A stretch of 64,000 bases of DNA from contig CAZSLS010000002.1 of NCBI GenBank assembly GCA_964607575.1, forward strand, positions 25,304 through 89,303, given 5' to 3'. A model generated the notes under the pieces. It did not search any database. It was not told the DNA's origin and saw nothing but the letters and a program-made list of their open reading frames with translations. The first letter of the stretch is position 1. The number at the start of each line of letters is the position of its first letter. Below are positions 14,750-25,026 of the stretch, piece by piece. Both the position numbers and the translations under genes were made by a program. The DNA comes from an uncultured Planctomycetaceae bacterium (GTDB taxonomy: Bacteria; Planctomycetota; Phycisphaerae; SM23-33).

Positions 14750-16255
14750 TCAGTCGCGCAGCCGACGTGTCGAGGACGGAGGCCTCCTCGAGGGCCTCGA
14801 ACTTGCCTTGCGGCGCGGCGTGTCGGTCCCGAACGGGGATACCGCTTTACCCGCGGTGCAGTGCGTACACATGGCGGTTTTCGCTCCCCTGCAGGTACTG
14901 CACGTCCCGGACCCGCCCCTACCGTTGCAATATGGACAGACGGAGGTCCCCCTCAACTCGGCTTTCTGCTTGCTGCAAGTGGAACACGGGCCCGAACGCG
15001 ACGAGCCGTATCGCGAGCGATGCATTATACCACTACCACTGCACGTGCGACATTTCGAGTATTTCTTGTAGTAAACACCGCCGCGCCGCACCTTCCCGCT
15101 GGCAACCTTACCGCGACCCGAGCAGCGCGAACATTTGAGACGCCACGTGCCCCCGCACGAGCGACACTTGCCCCGCCCGGCGCCCTTACAGTAATGGCAT
15201 TTGCGCAATCCGGTGGCCTGACCGTTGGTTGTGCAGCCCTTACAGGGCATCTTCCCGGTTCCAAAACAATACGAACATACCAGCGGGTCCACATTCCCCA
15301 ACTTGGCGAGGTCCGACTTGATCTGGGACAAGCTGAGCTTCAACGCTGCGGACATGACGTCAGCTCCGGTATGCAATTTCAGCGTACGTTCATAGTAGAC
15401 TTTGGCGCGCCCGAGCATTCTGTATTTCACCACCGCCACCGGACTCTTGGACAACTCCTTGTAGTACCAGTCGCCCAGATTCTTGCAAGCATCAACGCTC
15501 TGTTCGGAGATGTCCTTGACCGCCATCGGGACAAATATCCGAAACCTCTCGTCGACATCCTCGTTGACGTACTTCATCGCTTCAACCGGATCGTTCATCG
15601 CCGTCACCAGCATCGTCACCAGATTCGAGCGGGCATCGAGATCGTCGGGGGTTTTCTCGAGAGTCTCGATATTACCGGCGATCTTGTCCTGGACCCTGGA
15701 GAGATACGACGATGAGCGTATGTAGCCCGCAAGCCTGTTGGGATTTGGCAGCCTGTAGGCCACCATCACCACCTTGGCCTCGTTGAACAGACTCGATGCC
15801 TTCTTCCATTGACCCTTGGCTGCACTGGCGCCGCCCGCCTCGGTCAGCGCCGCGACGGCTGCTTCGGCCAGTTGCCGTTTCTCGGTCGAAGACTTCGACA
15901 GGGTACACCATCGGCGGTAGACGGCGGCCTTGCGGGACAGCCAATGAGCCTTCCTGCCGGGATCGGACCTTGCCAGATCGGTCAGGATACCCTGGAACTT
16001 CCTGCAGTCATCGACGGTCCTGAGGCTCTTTATTCCGTATTGCACGGCCCGTTCCAGCAGGGCGATCTTCAATTTGCTGTTGCCCTCCGCCAGGGAGACG
16101 GCCCCCATTAGCAGGGTGGATCGCTGGCTGTCGGTGCGTGCGTCCTTGATAATTTCCTGGACAAACGCTTCGATTTCGTCATCGGACTCCGCCGAAAGCG
16201 TTCCGGCGACCACCAGCAACGCAATGAGGACAAGTGTGATTTCTCTCAATTTCAT
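14750..16255 (-). CDS. Secreted protein with C-terminal DnaJ-CR-like CxxCxGxG zinc-finger repeats (paralogue A)
   Basis: The start is set at MKLREITLVLIALLVVAGTLSA (signal peptide). The C-terminal ~150 aa has more than eight CxxC pairs (CSYCFGTGKMPCKGC…CHYCKGAGRGKCRSCGG…CSRCSGRGK…). It is paralogous to 16417..17817 over its whole length. Confidence 0.55.
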   Translation of the reverse strand: MKLREITLVLIALLVVAGTLSAESDDEIEAFVQEIIKDARTDSQRSTLLMGAVSLAEGNSKLKIALLERAVQYGIKSLRTVDDCRKFQGILTDLARSDPGRKAHWLSRKAAVYRRWCTLSKSSTEKRQLAEAAVAALTEAGGASAAKGQWKKASSLFNEAKVVMVAYRLPNPNRLAGYIRSSSYLSRVQDKIAGNIETLEKTPDDLDARSNLVTMLVTAMNDPVEAMKYVNEDVDERFRIFVPMAVKDISEQSVDACKNLGDWYYKELSKSPVAVVKYRMLGRAKVYYERTLKLHTGADVMSAALKLSLSQIKSDLAKLGNVDPLVCSYCFGTGKMPCKGCTTNGQATGLRKCHYCKGAGRGKCRSCGGTWRLKCSRCSGRGKVASGKVRRGGVYYKKYSKCRTCSGSGIMHRSRYGSSRSGPCSTCSKQKAELRGTSVCPYCNGRGGSGTCSTCRGAKTAMCTHCTAGKAVSPFGTDTPRRKASSRPSRRPPSSTRRLRD

Positions 16256-16416
16256 CTGTAGTTTTCCCTTGCCCGTCGCAAGAGGGGCAGGCAAGTGATC
16301 CGAGGCGACTACCTCCGACCACGAGTAGCACTTGGAATTGTATACCACGGGAGGGGCGAACAGCAACCTTTTTGCAGTTGATCGAGATGCGGGACCCGGA
16401 CTGTACACCGCTGGTC

Positions 16417-17817
16417 TTACGGGCAATTCGTGCAGCGCAGAGTCTTCTCCCCGTCGCATTTCGAGCACGCCTTGGATCCCCCGCCACCCTCGCAATCAGT
16501 GCAGGTATCGCTTCCTTTGGGGCGATGATAGCTGCAATTCGAACACGTACCGGAACGATAGCGTTTGTACCTGACGCTATAGTGAATATTGCCCCTTCCC
16601 GAGCAGGGCGAACAAGTCCTCGATGAACGCTGCTTACCGTAGTAGGTTTTCACCATCACGTACACGACGCCCCTACCGCCACAGGTCTTGCACTTGAGAC
16701 CGTATTTCCCGTTGCAACTGGCGCACTTCATCCGCCCGGTACTCTTGCACTTGGCACACTGTAGTTTTCCGGTACTCTTACCGCCGACCATGCATGGCGA
16801 ACAGTCCGTCTTACCGGCCGCAAAACAGTACACGCATATCAAAGGATCGACCTTGCGCAGCTTGGCCAGTTCAGCTTCGATCTGAGAGATCTGGTGTTTC
16901 ATCGCCGCGCTTGCGATGTCGGACTTGTCGTGAAGCGACAGTGCCTGCTGGTGGTAGGCCCTGGCCTTGCTCAACATCTTGTACTTGACCAGCGAGACCA
17001 TACTTTTCGACAGTTCCTTGTAGTACCAGTCGCCCAGGCTCTTGCAGCCTTCAAACGGTACTTCGGAAATACTTTTTGCCGCCAGGGGAACGTATGCCTG
17101 GTATTTCTGGTCGACGTCGTCGTTGATGTACTTGGCTGCGCTAACCGGATCGTCGAGCGTAACCAGGAGCGTCTTGACAAGATTCGACCGCAGATCGGCA
17201 TCATCGGGTGTTTTGGCCAGTGTCGCGGTGTATTTGGCGGCCTGTTCCTGGGCCTTGCTGAGACTGGCAACGGTACGCAGGCGAATCGACAGGTTGCTCT
17301 TCACAAGCTGCTTGTAGAGAATCGCGGCAGATCTGGCGTCGCTGTAGGCGGACATGGACGTTTTCCAGTCGCCCTTTACCGCGGCGCTGTGCCCGGCCCG
17401 TACGAGCAGGGCAACGATCTTAGCCCCAATCTGGTCCTTCTCGTCCCTGGATTTTGTCAGGGTGTAAATGCGACGATATATCAGCGCCTGCTGAGAGAGC
17501 CAGTGTGATTCCCTCTCGGGTACCTTTTCGGCAAGTATGCCCACCGCCTTCTCGATCCTGCTGCACTCATCGGCAGTCCGAAGGCTCTTCATCCCGTACT
17601 CGACGGATTTTTCCAACAGAGCGATCTGCAGCTTCTTGTTGCCTTCGGTCAGAGAAACCGCTTCCATGAGCTTGAGCGACCGCTGGCTGTCGGTGCGCGC
17701 GCCCTGGATGATCTCTTTGATGAAATCTTCGGTCTCGTTACCGCACAGCAACCCCGCGAAAAAACCCACGACCGCCAGAGTAACTACGACCCGTGATTTG
17801 ACTGCTCTAGATTGCAT
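16417..17817 (-). CDS. Secreted protein with C-terminal DnaJ-CR-like CxxCxGxG zinc-finger repeats (paralogue B)
   Basis: N-terminal signal/TM (VVVTLAVVGFFAGLLCG) is present. The C-terminus has CVYCFAAGKTDCSPC…CAKCKSTGRMKCASCNGK…CKTCGGRG…. The N-terminal domain is about 50% identical to paralogue A (…ARTDSQRS…AVSL.EGN.KL.IALLE…SLGDWYYKELSKS…). Confidence 0.55.
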   Translation of the reverse strand: MQSRAVKSRVVVTLAVVGFFAGLLCGNETEDFIKEIIQGARTDSQRSLKLMEAVSLTEGNKKLQIALLEKSVEYGMKSLRTADECSRIEKAVGILAEKVPERESHWLSQQALIYRRIYTLTKSRDEKDQIGAKIVALLVRAGHSAAVKGDWKTSMSAYSDARSAAILYKQLVKSNLSIRLRTVASLSKAQEQAAKYTATLAKTPDDADLRSNLVKTLLVTLDDPVSAAKYINDDVDQKYQAYVPLAAKSISEVPFEGCKSLGDWYYKELSKSMVSLVKYKMLSKARAYHQQALSLHDKSDIASAAMKHQISQIEAELAKLRKVDPLICVYCFAAGKTDCSPCMVGGKSTGKLQCAKCKSTGRMKCASCNGKYGLKCKTCGGRGVVYVMVKTYYGKQRSSRTCSPCSGRGNIHYSVRYKRYRSGTCSNCSYHRPKGSDTCTDCEGGGGSKACSKCDGEKTLRCTNCP

Positions 17818-18068
17818 ATCGCCACATTCTTATTTATACGCACAGCACACCGGGAAGGTTACAAATAACCTCACCGACCACGATCATATCCTGAAAGTCA
17901 CAGTAATTCGCAGGATTCAACCCACAAGTCTATACCATACCATACGTTCGTTTAGAACGCATATCAAGCGACTTTGTTGCAAAACAACAAGGGCGCCATC
18001 CAGACCTCAAACGCTCAGCATACCTATCAGACGCCTCGTTTGCCAGTTTGGTTCCCCGGAAATATCGT

Positions 18069-19234: not shown

Positions 19235-22159
19235 CTAGTAAACCCTTCCGAAGTTTCGCTGCTGGGGGATCGCCTTTGCGCCTGGCATGTCGATTCTCGG
19301 ATAGGCGAGGAGGGAGGCTTTCGCTTCCTTGAGGACTTTGAGTATGGCCTGATAATCGGGATCTTTGGTGGATTTGAATCTTGCCTTGTCGTTTTCGGCC
19401 GCGCCGCCTGCCGATTTGGCCAGCAGGCCCACGAAGCCCGGTGTCCACTGCGGATTGGTGAAGTTCAGGTTTCTTGCGTCTATGCGCACCTTTTTCTCGG
19501 CGCAGATCTTCTTCAGCCTGTTGACCCATGGAGCGGGTTTGGGGCGTCCCTTTCCGTCGGGCGGTGGAACGGTAGTCGCATCCCGCCCGCCCACCGAATA
19601 CGGACGCGACATGTCCCACGTGCTGTAGTAAGGCACGTTGGCGTCGATCCAGGCGTAGATGCGGCGACGGCCTTGGTCGTCAACATTCACCAACTCGTGC
19701 TTCTCGCTGGTGGACCGGTGTTTCGACTCGATGATCTTCGTCAGCCTGCTGACCCACGAACCGGTCCCGAACGCCGGGAAGTTGCCCGTCGGTCCGGGAT
19801 TGATGTAGTAGTATGCGACGTAATTCCTGAACACCAGCGACTGGTACGACATCGAGTAGAACTGCGTCTTGTCGCCCGACAGGTCGATACCCTTGGCGGG
19901 CGTCGCGCCCGAATGACACTTGATGCAGTGCTTGTCCAGAACGGGCTGGACCTGCTTAACGTAGTCGACCGGTCCGGCGCCCCATGCCGGCGGTGTGATC
20001 TTGTCCGGCGGTTTGGACATGCGTTTCATGTTCGTCGGATTCACCGGTGAGGGCTTGAGGCGATCTTCGTGACATCCGATGCAGGATGCCTGCTCGCCGG
20101 TTGTGATCTGGGTGACCGAACCCATCCTGATTATCTCTTTACCGTTTTCGTCGAGAGCCTCGAAGTAGATCTCCGTGTTCGAGGGCACTTTGAAGAAGGC
20201 AGCCCCGCTTTCGGCGACCGGAACGGTACCGAGATTGATCTTCACGTAATAGCTGCCCTGCCCGATGATCGGGTAATGGTCGTGGTAGCGAGGCCCCTCG
20301 GTGTTGTATTTCTTGGGCGATTGGGCCAGGATCCTCAGGCGCTTGACCTGCCCGCGTTTGACGCCCTGGCGCAGCAGGCCCTGGTAGACGTCCTGGACGA
20401 AGAACGTGCCCTCGCCGGGCTCCTGGGGACACTGTCCGGGGATGATATTGGGCACGGGGCGCTTGCTAAGGGGTACGGCGTTGAAGCACTGCAGGGTCAG
20501 GTCCTTGTACAGGGGCACGACCAAACCGTCGTGCTTGAGAAACGCGATATGATACCGACCCGTTCGCCCGTCAGACACCAGTGAGTAATCCGTGGTTACC
20601 GGATACGGGTCGGTGAACGAGTTGCGATACAACCGATCGCCCGGAGCCCAGTTCGTATGCTTCCAGTCCCTACCGACGGTGACCCTGTATGGCGTGGCGT
20701 TGGTGATCTTGGTCATGCCCTTGGGGTTCTCCACGCCCAGTGATCGGTCGACGATTGCAATGTCGCCCAGTGGCGGGTGGTGGTGGGCGGCCATCGTCAG
20801 GATCACCTTCTTCGTACCCGGTATCTCCTTGGCGCCGTAAACGGAATTGGGCACGGTCAGTGTATTACCGTGATACAGTTTGAGCTGGCGACCGTTGGGG
20901 TTGATCGTCCAGAGACCTTCCCACATGAAGATGTTCTTGTCCTGATACTCCCACCGCGTGCAGAGGATCGAACCGTCAGCCAGGACCGCTGGCGAGAGCG
21001 TACACAGGGTAGTCCAGTCGAACCGGCGCATGTTGGACCCGTCAGCGTTGATAACGTACAGGGCACATGCCAGGAAATTCTGGCAGAGCGAGAATGATTC
21101 GACGCGCGAGGAGGTGAATATGATCCGCCCGTCGCCGTAGTAGACCGGGCTCACATCGTGGAACGGGCCCTTGGTCAGTTGGCGCATACCCGTACCGTCG
21201 ACGTTGATCTCCCAGATATGGAACGGGAGGTTTGTCTTCTCCTTGTACGAGAACACGAGCTTCTTACCGTCAAACGACGGGTTCATGTCGAAGATGAAGC
21301 CCTCCTTGGTTTCAAAGATGACTTTCGGCGCAATGTCCGGTCTGGCTGGATTATACGTGCAGATCGCCGCCCCTTTCCCTGTTCTGCGGGCAAACATCGT
21401 GGCGTTCGTACCGCTCATTCCGTAATTCTGCCGCTTGATGAACGCGATCGGCGGGCAATCCCTGGCGAGTTTGGCGGCTGCGACCCGCTCGGCGGCGATC
21501 TTGGCTTTCTCGGCGGGCGTAAGCCCCGCCTCGATGAATAACTTCATATCAGGGCTGTGGTTTACGCGCTTGGTGCGGTACAACATTTTACCCTCGGGCG
21601 TAGTTACCCGGATGTTTTTGAACTGCACCTGCGTGGACCAACTGCCCAGACCGATACCGCCGGTCTTGTGGCGATGATTCGTAGCAGTATGGATGAGTTT
21701 CCCGTTGAGGTAGCACTTGATGGACGATCCGGCGACCTTGACGCCAATGCGATACCACGTTCCATTCTTGATCGAACCCCTGACCCTCGGGAATCCGCCC
21801 CTGCTCCGCCCGCGCTCGATCGACTCGATTGCATGACCGGTGTTACGCCATCCGCCGACGTTCCACCAGTAGAAGTTGTTCTTGTCTTCCGCTCGGAAGA
21901 TGACAAGGAAACCTTCGGTCCCGCTGATCCTGCGGGCCTCGAGTTCGTAGGTGTAGTCGGTCCACTTGGTGAATTTAGCAAAGGAGCGACAGTCCATTGC
22001 CTTTTCGAGTTGTGCGAAGACATTGTCTATGTGGACCCACCGCCCCTTGGTGGGAGTCCAGTCCTTAAACGACTGGTTGACATCCGCGGCTGATACTACC
22101 GAAGCGGTCGACACAAGCGCGACCGCCATTATCACTACACGTCGCAAACTACTGAACAT
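19235..22159 (-). CDS. Secreted paralogue: DUF1080-like jelly-roll N-domain, PD40/TolB-like beta-propeller, two CxxCH (PSCyt-like) motifs
   Basis: Signal peptide MFSSLRRVVIMAVALVSTASVVSA is present, with GAGGA 8 nt upstream. The N-terminus …FYWWNVGGW…IRV is DUF1080/LamG-like. The C-terminus has CIGCHEDRL and CIKCHSG. The protein aligns with 27760..30612. Confidence 0.6.
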   Translation of the reverse strand: MFSSLRRVVIMAVALVSTASVVSAADVNQSFKDWTPTKGRWVHIDNVFAQLEKAMDCRSFAKFTKWTDYTYELEARRISGTEGFLVIFRAEDKNNFYWWNVGGWRNTGHAIESIERGRSRGGFPRVRGSIKNGTWYRIGVKVAGSSIKCYLNGKLIHTATNHRHKTGGIGLGSWSTQVQFKNIRVTTPEGKMLYRTKRVNHSPDMKLFIEAGLTPAEKAKIAAERVAAAKLARDCPPIAFIKRQNYGMSGTNATMFARRTGKGAAICTYNPARPDIAPKVIFETKEGFIFDMNPSFDGKKLVFSYKEKTNLPFHIWEINVDGTGMRQLTKGPFHDVSPVYYGDGRIIFTSSRVESFSLCQNFLACALYVINADGSNMRRFDWTTLCTLSPAVLADGSILCTRWEYQDKNIFMWEGLWTINPNGRQLKLYHGNTLTVPNSVYGAKEIPGTKKVILTMAAHHHPPLGDIAIVDRSLGVENPKGMTKITNATPYRVTVGRDWKHTNWAPGDRLYRNSFTDPYPVTTDYSLVSDGRTGRYHIAFLKHDGLVVPLYKDLTLQCFNAVPLSKRPVPNIIPGQCPQEPGEGTFFVQDVYQGLLRQGVKRGQVKRLRILAQSPKKYNTEGPRYHDHYPIIGQGSYYVKINLGTVPVAESGAAFFKVPSNTEIYFEALDENGKEIIRMGSVTQITTGEQASCIGCHEDRLKPSPVNPTNMKRMSKPPDKITPPAWGAGPVDYVKQVQPVLDKHCIKCHSGATPAKGIDLSGDKTQFYSMSYQSLVFRNYVAYYYINPGPTGNFPAFGTGSWVSRLTKIIESKHRSTSEKHELVNVDDQGRRRIYAWIDANVPYYSTWDMSRPYSVGGRDATTVPPPDGKGRPKPAPWVNRLKKICAEKKVRIDARNLNFTNPQWTPGFVGLLAKSAGGAAENDKARFKSTKDPDYQAILKVLKEAKASLLAYPRIDMPGAKAIPQQRNFGRVY

Positions 22160-23496: not shown

Positions 23497-25026
23497 ATGA
23501 ATAGAACCGGAAGACGTGATTTTCTCAGGACGGCGGCTGTGGGGGCGGCTGTGTTGGCGACCGGTCGGGTGGCGGGCGCGGCGGCGAAAAGTAAACGTCC
23601 GCCTAACGTCATCCTGATAATGGTCGACGATATGGGGTTTTCGGATCTGGGATGCTACGGCAGCGCGATCAAGACGCCTAATATTGACAAGCTTGCGGAT
23701 GGCGGCTTGAAGTTCACGCAATTCTACAACACTGCCAAATGCGGACCTACACGGGCGAGCCTGCTTACCGGATGCTACCACAGAGAGGTCGGTCAGAAGG
23801 CGTTGCGAAACTGCATGACGCTGGGGCAGGCTATGAAGCGAGCTGGATATCGGACGCTCATGACGGGGAAATGGCATCTGCAGTCCAACCCGATCGCCAA
23901 GGGGTTCGACCGCTACTTCGGGCACCTCAGCGGGGCTACGAATTTTTTCACGGGCGACAACTCGTTCCGCCTCGACAAAGAGAAATTCACCGTCCCGAAA
24001 GAAGGCTTCTACACCACCGACGCCAACACCGACTACGCGATACAGTTCCTCGACGAGGCCGCAAAAAAACACGCCGACAAACCGTTCTTCCTGTACATCG
24101 CCTACAACGCGCCGCACTACCCACTGCACGCCTGGCCCGAAGATATCGCCAGGTACAAGGGCAAATTCATGAAGGGATGGGACGCCCTGCGCCTCGAGCG
24201 TCACGAGCGACAGTTGAAGATGGGCCTGCTCAAAGCCAAGTGGAAACTCTCGCCGCGAGACCCCAAGGTGCCCGCGTGGGATACGCTCACCGACGAGCAG
24301 AAAGAAACCGAAGACCTCACGATGGCGGTATTCGCGGCCATGATCGATCGCGTAGACCAGAACATCGGTAAGCTGCTGGGCAAGCTCAAAACGCTCGGCG
24401 CCGACGACAACACGCTGCTGCTGTTCCTCAGCGATAATGGCGGATGCCCGTTCCAGCGGACCAGGACGCCGAACATCCCGCCCGGACCAGCCAACTCGTA
24501 CTGGACATATCACGAAGGCTGGGCCCAGGTATCCAACACCCCCTTCCGACTCTACAAGCAGAACCAGCACGAGGGCGGGGTTTCGACCCCGCTGATCGCG
24601 CACTGGCCCGGAGTCGTAAAACCGGGCACGATGACCGACCAGAGCGGGCACCTGATCGACATAATGGCCACACTTCTGGACATCACGTCCACCAAATACC
24701 CCGACCAACTCGATGGGACAAAACTCCGCCCGCTGCGGGGCAAGAGCCTCCTGCCGATACTCGAGGGCCGACGGCGCGAACCGCACGAAGAAATATTCTT
24801 CGAGTTCGCGAAGTATAAGGCCCTGCGCGCCGGTAAATGGAAAATCTCGTGGCGATACGGGCCGTGGGAACTGTACGATATCGAAGCTGACCGCACCGAG
24901 CTGAACAACCTCGCGGCCGAGATGCCCGAGAAGGTCAAACAACTCGCCGCACGCCACGACGCATGGTTGAAGGAACTCGGCGGCGGGCAGGCGAAGAAAC
25001 AACGGACGCGAAAAAAGAAAAAATGA
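23497..25026 (+). CDS. Arylsulfatase (formylglycine-dependent sulfatase), Tat-secreted
   Basis: RRDFLRTAAVGAAVLA is a twin-arginine signal. The sulfatase signature C-x-P-x-R appears in …TAKCGPTRASLLTGCY…. …MVDDMGFSDLGCYGS… and …GKWHLQ… are also present. Confidence 0.9.
   Translation: MNRTGRRDFLRTAAVGAAVLATGRVAGAAAKSKRPPNVILIMVDDMGFSDLGCYGSAIKTPNIDKLADGGLKFTQFYNTAKCGPTRASLLTGCYHREVGQKALRNCMTLGQAMKRAGYRTLMTGKWHLQSNPIAKGFDRYFGHLSGATNFFTGDNSFRLDKEKFTVPKEGFYTTDANTDYAIQFLDEAAKKHADKPFFLYIAYNAPHYPLHAWPEDIARYKGKFMKGWDALRLERHERQLKMGLLKAKWKLSPRDPKVPAWDTLTDEQKETEDLTMAVFAAMIDRVDQNIGKLLGKLKTLGADDNTLLLFLSDNGGCPFQRTRTPNIPPGPANSYWTYHEGWAQVSNTPFRLYKQNQHEGGVSTPLIAHWPGVVKPGTMTDQSGHLIDIMATLLDITSTKYPDQLDGTKLRPLRGKSLLPILEGRRREPHEEIFFEFAKYKALRAGKWKISWRYGPWELYDIEADRTELNNLAAEMPEKVKQLAARHDAWLKELGGGQAKKQRTRKKKK

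Follow-up and report, generated by a model that had tools for sequence, protein, structure and literature searches.

Tandem planctomycete proteins with predicted export signals carry a putative ten-CxxC domain distantly related to the zinc fingers of DnaJ

Two adjacent minus-strand genes, which we call A and B, lie within a 64-kb stretch of DNA from an uncultured Planctomycetaceae bacterium (this whole 64,000-nucleotide stretch is called the window below), and each encodes a protein whose last ~140 residues are crowded with cysteines. Both open reading frames (ORFs) described in an earlier note on this DNA are indeed present, and their products are paralogues; the identity of about 50% that the note reported comes to 48% over 462 columns, which begin where the signal peptide ends and reach to the final cysteine, tail included (BLASTP, E 2e-147). 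Similarly, where eight or more CxxC pairs per tail had been counted there are exactly ten in each, with 20 cysteines running from C328 to C465 in A and from C327 to C466 in B. Judged by its sequence, this array appears to be a discrete, uncatalogued domain of ~125-155 aa in which ten CxxC motifs are held at a fixed spacing. Pfam does not describe such a domain, and no description of a ten-motif array was found in the literature. The pair comprises the following features, in window coordinates.

16417..17817, minus strand: gene A, complete coding sequence with stop codon, 466 aa (ORF; a 100% identical database protein, P0001; orthologues).
17740..17817, minus strand: predicted Sec signal peptide of A, aa 1-26, MQSRAVKSRVVVTLAVVGFFAGLLCG, followed by NETE (heuristic; cleavage site inferred).
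16852..17739, minus strand: predicted all-helical N-domain of A resembling tetratricopeptide repeats (TPR-like), aa 27-322 (AlphaFold2 (AF2), Foldseek).
16420..16851, minus strand: putative ten-CxxC array domain of A, aa 323-466, C328 to C465 (alignments, spacing, AF2).
16256..16416, minus strand: A-B intergenic spacer, 161 bp (read off the sequence).
14750..16255, minus strand: gene B, complete coding sequence with stop codon, 501 aa (ORF; start at the Met conserved among orthologues).
16190..16255, minus strand: predicted Sec signal peptide of B, aa 1-22, MKLREITLVLIALLVVAGTLSA, followed by ESDDE (heuristic).
15293..16189, minus strand: predicted TPR-like N-domain of B, aa 23-321 (aligns with the N-domain of A).
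14849..15292, minus strand: putative ten-CxxC array domain of B, aa 322-469, C327 to C466 (alignments, spacing).
14753..14848, minus strand: basic Ser/Pro/Arg-rich C-terminal extension of B, aa 470-501, 32 aa, not present in A (orthologue alignment).

A profile of the tail, run exhaustively with HMMER against 1.84 billion cluster representatives, returned 1389 matches at E < 1e-3, 54 of them at E < 1e-10. Many of the matches span the whole profile in one stretch yet belong to unrelated proteins, and many of the weaker ones are generic or multi-copy CxxC repeats. The ten-motif spacing signature is present in 91 of the best 150 of these 1389 matches, and all array counts given below refer to these best 150 representative matches. 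Among 40 diverse proteins the distances from one CxxC to the next are 11, 15 (or 11), 11, 11-12, ~26 (variable), 12-25 (variable), 14-16, 12 and 11. Moreover, 40 arrays drawn from unrelated architectures, at a mean identity of 31%, agree without exception at 19 of the 20 cysteines, and at least 90% of them keep the remaining one. Their consensus reads CxxCxGxG at motifs 1, 3, 5, 6 and 8 and CPxCxGx[W/K] at motifs 4 and 9, and CxxCxGxG or CxxCxG thereby occurs at 7 of the 10 motifs. In A itself the full CxxCxGxG spacing that had been ascribed to the tails holds for three motifs (5, 6 and 8), while motifs 4 and 9 read CxxCxG and the others CxxCxxxG or bare CxxC. When the tail alone and the 40-sequence array profile were run against a word-indexed database almost nothing was returned, the index being poor on cysteine-rich repeats. 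Within the 64-kb window, a six-frame profile scan revealed no further copies of either the array or the N-domain.

The family to which A and B belong was collected from a search of 5.8 billion proteins, which yielded 54 relatives, all from metagenomes or metagenome-assembled genomes (MAGs) and, where a source is named, from Phycisphaerae, Phycisphaerales or Planctomycetota. These fall into an A-type group (24 orthologues besides P0001, 59-85% identical to A), a B-type group (P0026-P0042, 42-49% identical to A) and a third, more distant group that has the N-domain alone in common. In an alignment of 34 homologues each of the 20 tail cysteines is either invariant or conserved to at least 90%, and several glycines at positions +2 and +4 after CxxC are likewise conserved. 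Since these residues are kept at a mean column identity of only 56%, the genes of the A/B family appear to be under purifying selection, with the cysteine pattern a conserved feature far beyond chance. NCBIfam has no family for A or B, and among 185,579 species genomes scanned no more than five MAGs contain the A/B family, each of them labelled as Phycisphaerae, Phycisphaerales or Planctomycetaceae. The family is narrow and was found only in uncultured marine Phycisphaerae; two samples appear in the names of the MAGs, one from the Black Sea at 750 m and one from the Arabian Sea.

What is the array related to? The cysteine-rich (CR) domain of DnaJ is a V-shaped pair of beta-hairpins around two zinc ions, with one Zn(Cys)4 site built from motifs 1 and 4 and the other from motifs 2 and 3. 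Its Pfam family, DnaJ_CXXCXGXG (PF00684), is the best Pfam match for A (20.7 bits, E 5e-4) and the second for B (13.7 bits, E 0.075), in both cases below the gathering cutoff of 32.7 bits, and related array proteins score 17.7-29.5 bits, likewise sub-threshold. The match ranked ahead of it for B, GRXCR1-2_C (18.1 bits, cutoff 26), and a match of A to zf-AtTam37 (15.3 bits, cutoff 27) also fall short, and neither protein matches BSD2_CRD in Pfam. The J domain (DnaJ, PF00226) and DnaJ_C have no Pfam match in A or B at E <= 1. Among PDB sequences the tail profile finds EMB2737 (8XKU chain R) best, at E 6e-4 and 23 bits, followed by DnaJA3 (E 0.019) and the E. coli DnaJ CR domain 1EXK (E 0.041). 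An AF2 model of the tail alone has a predicted local distance difference test score (pLDDT) of 61 overall, rising to 82-86 in the central 60 residues. The three distinct targets that Foldseek ranks first for it are the DnaJ proteins DnaJA2 (7ZHS) and Streptococcus pneumoniae DnaJ (6JZB), albeit as weak matches (TM 0.28, E 7e-3 to 1.7e-2).

The profile comparison is more specific about where the likeness lies. Using hhalign, the 40-array profile aligns with the E. coli CR segment at 81% probability, and motif 5, beta-hairpin and motif 6 of the array are placed on motif 2, hairpin and motif 3 of DnaJ, which form zinc centre II. In the full-length AF2 model of A the array has a pLDDT of 71-89, with beta-hairpins at residues 384-401 and 410-422, and the long hairpin (384-391/394-401) falls exactly between C376xxC379 and C402xxC405. 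Because the alignment and the modelled hairpin coincide, the core of the array is predicted to be a DnaJ-type zinc hairpin with four more knuckles on each side, and the array seems to resemble an expanded form of the DnaJ zinc-finger hairpin. The CxxCxGxG knuckles and the central CxxC-beta-hairpin-CxxC are thus common to DnaJ and to the array; however, the DnaJ domain has four motifs and two zinc centres, as opposed to ten motifs and about five predicted metal sites, and has plain strands where the array has its extra CxxC motifs. DnaJ, a type I Hsp40, also has a J domain, a G/F region and a C-terminal domain, all lacking in A and B, in which the array is instead mounted on a signal-peptide-bearing, TPR-like protein. 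The tail had been called DnaJ-CR-like, and the nearest known relatives are indeed DnaJ-type zinc fingers. Nevertheless, since no family threshold is reached, the motifs number ten rather than four and the J domain is missing, the tail is a distant relative rather than a bona fide DnaJ CR domain, and it does not belong to the PF00684, BSD2, AtTam37 or GRXCR1 families.

The N-domain, which had been called unrelated, is better described as TPR-like. The full-length model of A, computed from the family alignment, has a mean pLDDT of 85.6, and residues 26-320 (a domain of ~295 aa) form 14 helices, mostly with pLDDT above 90. Against the PDB, Foldseek matches this domain to generic TPR solenoids only (LGN, OGT and kinesin light chain; E ~1e-3, TM 0.2-0.3). 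Nothing specific to the N-domain came from Pfam or NCBIfam, nor anything significant from PDB sequences searched with the full-length profile, and no Pfam TPR match occurs in A or B at E <= 1; the distant homologue P0051 gives a sub-threshold match to TPR_12 (20.6 bits, cutoff 30.1). The domain also occurs with other C-terminal modules. For example, in P0044-P0046 it is joined to a cysteine-free C-terminus of ~130 aa, and in P0047-P0054 a diverged version precedes one or two beta-rich C-terminal domains, among which P0048 alone gives a marginal match to 3keto-disac_hyd (DUF1080; E 0.098). In L011, P0061 and P0063, on the other hand, a diverged N-domain (29% identity) is found with a ten-CxxC array. 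From these sequences and the model, the N-domain probably represents a modular family of TPR-like solenoids that bears other C-terminal modules as well. We also observed a natural domain-insertion variant, the 476-aa metagenomic protein P0069, in which the array (residues 194-323) is inserted midway in a diverged N-domain.

A signal-peptide-like N-terminus, as had been proposed for each protein, is present in A, in B and throughout the family. Our signal-peptide calls combine a heuristic scan of hydrophobicity and charge with the alignment, from which the cleavage sites are deduced. All 34 members scanned have a positively charged start and a 12-residue hydrophobic core with a mean Kyte-Doolittle value of 2.2-3.5, and the stretch after the core is net-acidic in 33 of them and neutral in one. 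In A the core value (H12) is 2.74 and an acidic stretch follows the positive start and core; in B, H12 is 3.31 and the charge after the core is -5. Small residues stand directly before the mature start, which reads (D/N)ETE or DDE, as in ...VCG/DETE, ...VRA/DETE and ...AAAA/DDE, and B-type orthologues offer AxA-type sites, e.g. VFAAAA/DDE. The features of a Sec substrate cleaved by signal peptidase (SPase) I, namely a positive start, a hydrophobic core and small residues at -3 and -1, are therefore found by the heuristic in the 34 members, and residues 1-25 of A have a pLDDT below 50 in the AF2 model. Two other kinds of signal were considered and rejected. A lipoprotein signal (SPase II) does not suit the A-type G-L-[LVM]-C, which has a bulky residue at -1 and is not a lipobox, and several orthologues have R or A in place of Cys25 of A, a residue that the B-type proteins lack; a Tat signal does not suit either protein, as the N-terminal regions of A and B contain no twin-arginine motif. 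With Cys25 unconserved and outside a lipobox, and with no twin-arginine motif, a Sec/SPase I signal is the best reading, and we strongly infer from the sequences that A and B carry such a signal, or at least an N-in/C-out anchor, and are exported.

To place the array in other proteins, the 91 signature-bearing representatives were sorted into compartments by a crude hydrophobicity classification. A signal-peptide-like N-terminus was assigned to 35 and a transmembrane helix upstream of the array to 12, such that the array appears to be exported or outward-facing in 47 of 91; another 21 have no signal peptide and have membrane segments downstream, with the array probably cytoplasmic, and 23 are fragments or unclear. 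The other proteins with the array (P0063-P0202) are uncharacterised and metagenomic, and they have the A/B spacing signature and the invariant cysteines in common while their partner domains differ, some having multi-pass membrane domains downstream. For example, P0064, P0065, P0067 and P0068 combine a cytoplasmic zinc ribbon, a strongly basic stretch, one transmembrane helix and a long helical region with the array. P0070 has a transmembrane helix and CHB_HEX_C_1 and Fn3_assoc domains before it, and in P0078, P0081 and P0091 the order is signal peptide, small beta/TPR domain, array and VWA domain (the VWA domain of P0091 by inspection only). The array is thus probably a module of general use, found on either side of the membrane, and such use favours a metal-stabilised fold over one held by disulfides alone. 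The presence of this zinc-finger array on exported proteins had been judged unusual, and indeed no bacterial case was found in the literature; on the other hand, the 47 representatives just mentioned indicate that for the array itself such a location would be common.

Several details of these architectures deserve mention in their own right. In P0064, P0065, P0067, P0077 and P0095 the N-terminal zinc ribbon is of the double-CxxC kind (MIRFxCxxC...CPxCG) and is followed by a very basic linker, a transmembrane helix, ~350 aa of helical or coiled-coil sequence and the array, which would put Cys4 modules on both sides of the membrane. The 21 proteins without a signal peptide (P0117, P0134, P0137, P0139, P0162, P0195, P0201 and others) have the array at approximately residues 110-250 and one to five hydrophobic segments near the C-terminus, suggesting membrane proteins whose array is probably cytoplasmic. 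A J domain was suspected in P0070 from its N-terminal 'DYYTLLDV' and was rejected, as none is found there in Pfam at E <= 0.01.

Taken together, we consider it about an even chance (probability roughly 0.5) that A and B are periplasmic proteins in which a metal-stabilised array on a TPR-like scaffold acts as an ATP-independent holdase, an assembly factor or a scaffold; export, metal binding, cysteine pairing and chaperone or scaffold activity are all elements that we infer from the sequences and their analysis. What the sequences show directly is the structure of the genes, their paralogy, the invariance of the cysteines, the signal-peptide-like N-termini, the modular nature of both domains and a distant relationship to the DnaJ CR domain. 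According to this model A and B would be exported by Sec to the periplasm, where they would be soluble or tethered to the inner membrane. The 20 cysteines would bind five metal ions, most likely Zn(II), as tetrathiolates, and these centres would give a rigid, elongated array of beta-hairpins and knuckles. The centre of the array (motif 5, hairpin, motif 6) would be the counterpart of zinc centre II of DnaJ, and the flanking motifs may pair in a nested manner (4-7, 3-8, 2-9 and 1-10), extending the 1-4/2-3 topology of DnaJ; the two arms are roughly symmetric, with spacings of 11-16 residues, which fits such nesting, although the motifs may instead pair sequentially. The array would then offer one protein-binding surface and the TPR-like domain a second, and together they may serve envelope proteins as holdase, assembly factor or scaffold, in the way that the plastid proteins PSA2, BSD2 and Moc50 work without a J domain. 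This reading draws on the homology of the core to the DnaJ CR domain, on the pairing of the array with interaction domains (TPR, VWA) and on precedents from plastids.

A helical-repeat domain outside the cytoplasm would not be out of place in such a role. Extracytoplasmic chaperones and assembly factors with TPRs include P58IPK/DNAJC3 of the endoplasmic reticulum lumen, which combines TPRs with a J domain, and bacterial BepA and BamD. These proteins likewise join an extracytoplasmic helical-repeat scaffold to a chaperone-type module, as we propose for A and B; however, they have no sequence relationship to A or B, which contain neither a J nor a protease domain. The plastid precedents are closer to the array itself. 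PSA2 is reported in the thylakoid lumen and regulates assembly of photosystem I (PMC7662858), and Moc50, described as a scaffold, carries its DnaJ-like zinc-finger motifs within the intermembrane-space module of the Orf2971-FtsHi motor (bioRxiv 10.1101/2024.09.02.610899). PSA2, BSD2 and Moc50 are stand-alone CR-like zinc-finger proteins that act as assembly or scaffold factors and, like A and B, have no J domain, and PSA2 and Moc50 occupy compartments topologically outside the cytoplasm, similar to the predicted location of A and B. The description of CR-type fingers as cytoplasmic was accordingly too strong, given that PSA2 resides in the lumen of the thylakoids and Moc50 in the intermembrane space of the chloroplast. 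In contrast to A and B, the plastid proteins are eukaryotic, have 2-4 motifs and lack both the TPR-like N-domain and the ten-motif spacing. Our literature search found no bacterial or periplasmic DnaJ-like zinc finger without a J domain, the query for the periplasm returning only a chloroplast case and that for the CXXCXGXG motif in Planctomycetes nothing.

Several observations count against a periplasmic, metal-bound chaperone or scaffold. The tail modelled alone reaches a mean pLDDT of only 61, and Foldseek relates it only weakly to DnaJ (TM 0.28, E 7e-3). Oxidation of the DsbA type would be expected to oxidise the CxxC pairs of a protein exported by Sec, and bacterial periplasmic proteins seldom have Zn(Cys)4 sites. 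Furthermore, the gene neighbours point to no client or pathway, and the conserved synteny around the pair may reflect only the close relatedness of a few genomes.

In a different account the exported cysteines form disulfides, within the domain or between envelope proteins, and A and B are structural or cross-linking components of the envelope. The Sec-type signal peptides would expose both proteins to periplasmic oxidants, B-type members end in a Pro/Ser/Arg-rich tail, and planctomycete envelopes have historically been reported to be rich in cystine and proline proteins. We nonetheless regard a disulfide module as unlikely: zinc knuckles are typified by features seen here, namely the conserved glycines of CxxCxGxG, the beta-hairpin that separates motif 5 from motif 6 and the matches to the CR domain of DnaJ, and the occurrence of the array in probably cytoplasmic contexts (21 of 91 representatives) favours metal over disulfides. 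The sample names also point to waters (Black Sea at 750 m, Arabian Sea) that we take from general knowledge to be oxygen-poor, and in such waters periplasmic thiolates would presumably be less at risk. The same names suggest, as names only, a sulfidic or low-oxygen habitat, which together with the ten CxxC motifs and the presence of the array in both compartments could instead speak for redox or metal-handling work, with the CxxC pairs catalytic (as a thiol-disulfide oxidoreductase or isomerase) or the array buffering soft metals (Zn, Cd, Cu, Fe) in the periplasm. Thiol-disulfide activity has reportedly been seen for the DnaJ CR domain and for the plant proteins LQY1 and CYO1, and the literature links DnaJ-like zinc-finger proteins to disulfide isomerase. 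Yet a thioredoxin fold is missing from A and B, neither of which matches any oxidoreductase family in Pfam or NCBIfam, the strict invariance of 20 cysteines at fixed spacing better fits a structural role than catalysis at one site, and no metal transporter or resistance gene lies nearby, making this account quite improbable.

It is highly unlikely, in our judgement, that A and B are not exported at all, with the hydrophobic segment an uncleaved anchor or a mere hydrophobic helix of a cytoplasmic protein and the zinc fingers in a reducing compartment. Such a reading gains something from the heuristic nature of the signal call and from the JGI gene call P0001, which starts at an internal GTG and thereby drops most of the segment. 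However, in every member a positive start followed by an acidic flank (neutral in one member) points to an N-in/C-out orientation. Orthologues keep the whole N-terminus, with small residues at -1 and -3 before the mature domain, and in relatives that have a transmembrane helix upstream, along with domains of extracellular type, the array is placed outside. A further idea, for which we see only a slim chance, is that the array is a redox-active rod of five metal-thiolate centres, either a chain of rubredoxin-like Fe(Cys)4 or Zn/Fe centres near enough for electron transfer or a zinc-thiolate redox switch; the CPxCxG knuckles of motifs 4, 8 and 9 presumably have the same geometry as those of rubredoxin. 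Such a rod could let planctomycetes of presumably oxygen-poor waters sense or transmit redox state or handle thiophilic metals across an enlarged periplasm, with the TPR-like domain docking partners.

If the proposed periplasmic, metal-stabilised array is right, it would add an uncatalogued domain of ~125-155 aa in which ten CxxC motifs probably form five metal sites, and the range of J-less DnaJ-like zinc fingers that work outside the cytoplasm would grow from plastids to include bacteria. It would also bear on how Cys4 metal sites survive in the periplasm and on ATP-independent quality control or assembly in the unusual envelope of planctomycetes. The practical impact is limited by the narrowness of the A/B family and its origin in uncultured organisms, and hinges on biochemical follow-up.

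The earlier note had raised the question of whether the pair is always tandem. The A-B tandem is kept in four species genomes (L001/L006, L005, L007 and L008), and its conservation suggests that A and B have taken on different functions or act together. Extra copies occur as well, either in tandem or unlinked. One metagenomic contig (L015:6431-11099) has three tandem members, an A-type protein of 475 aa, P0039 of 471 aa and a B-type ORF of ~523 aa, which indicates that the A/B family expands by local duplication. A third, unlinked paralogue, 37-47% identical to A, is found in three MAGs that also have the tandem (L004:8001-9422, L009:6001-7386 and L010:6001-7383). The neighbours of the copy in L004, a BNR_4 sialidase-like protein, a HEAT/TPR protein and a TetR regulator, are unlike those of the tandem pair.

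The start codons adopted here rest on the orthologues. For A the ATG at 17817 is backed by an N-terminus that is conserved among them, and the internal GTG start (V17) of the JGI call P0001 would remove most of the signal peptide (17770-17817). For B the frame is open to 16495, i.e., 240 nt beyond the conserved Met and overlapping the 3' end of A by 79 nt; every orthologue instead starts at the Met at 16255 (MKLREIT...), unlike one public gene call, P0031 (532 aa), which uses an upstream start. The C-terminal extension of B is kept in most B-type orthologues with variable length and sequence (alignment columns 480-546), and its composition suggests that it is disordered. A scan for promoters was uninformative, with two sigma-70-like sites as compared to 1.6 expected from shuffled sequence, and the accompanying terminator scan, which took in the A-B spacer, revealed no terminator-like site. 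The site upstream of A is as follows.

17939..17967, minus strand: weak sigma-70-like promoter match upstream of A, TTGATA-17-TATGGT (consensus match only).

Around the pair, a same-strand block upstream is conserved among the related contigs and comprises a PQQ_2-like protein, a 974-aa DUF1080/HZS_alpha protein and a threonine-aldolase-like Beta_elim_lyase protein. Downstream, a convergent block of HAD, ATP-grasp, Bac_transf (sugar transferase) and Trypsin_2-PDZ (HtrA-like) protease genes is usually conserved. These genomes are close relatives, and the synteny is therefore of little functional weight. The gene for the 974-aa protein (window 19235-22159, minus strand) lies upstream of the A/B pair in every related contig, and a similar protein is encoded near the unlinked paralogue of L004 as well. 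It has a signal peptide, an N-terminal 3keto-disac_hyd (DUF1080) domain, a middle HZS_alpha domain and, near the C-terminus, two CxxCH motifs (CIGCH and CIKCH) that resemble c-type haem sites. ARAGORN found no tRNA or tmRNA genes in the 64-kb window. Finally, between positions 24000 and 56000 of the window the AT skew is strongly positive (+0.13 to +0.30) over ~32 kb, together with a long series of plus-strand ORFs of 400-1357 aa, and it appears to follow the coding strand and to mark nothing unusual.

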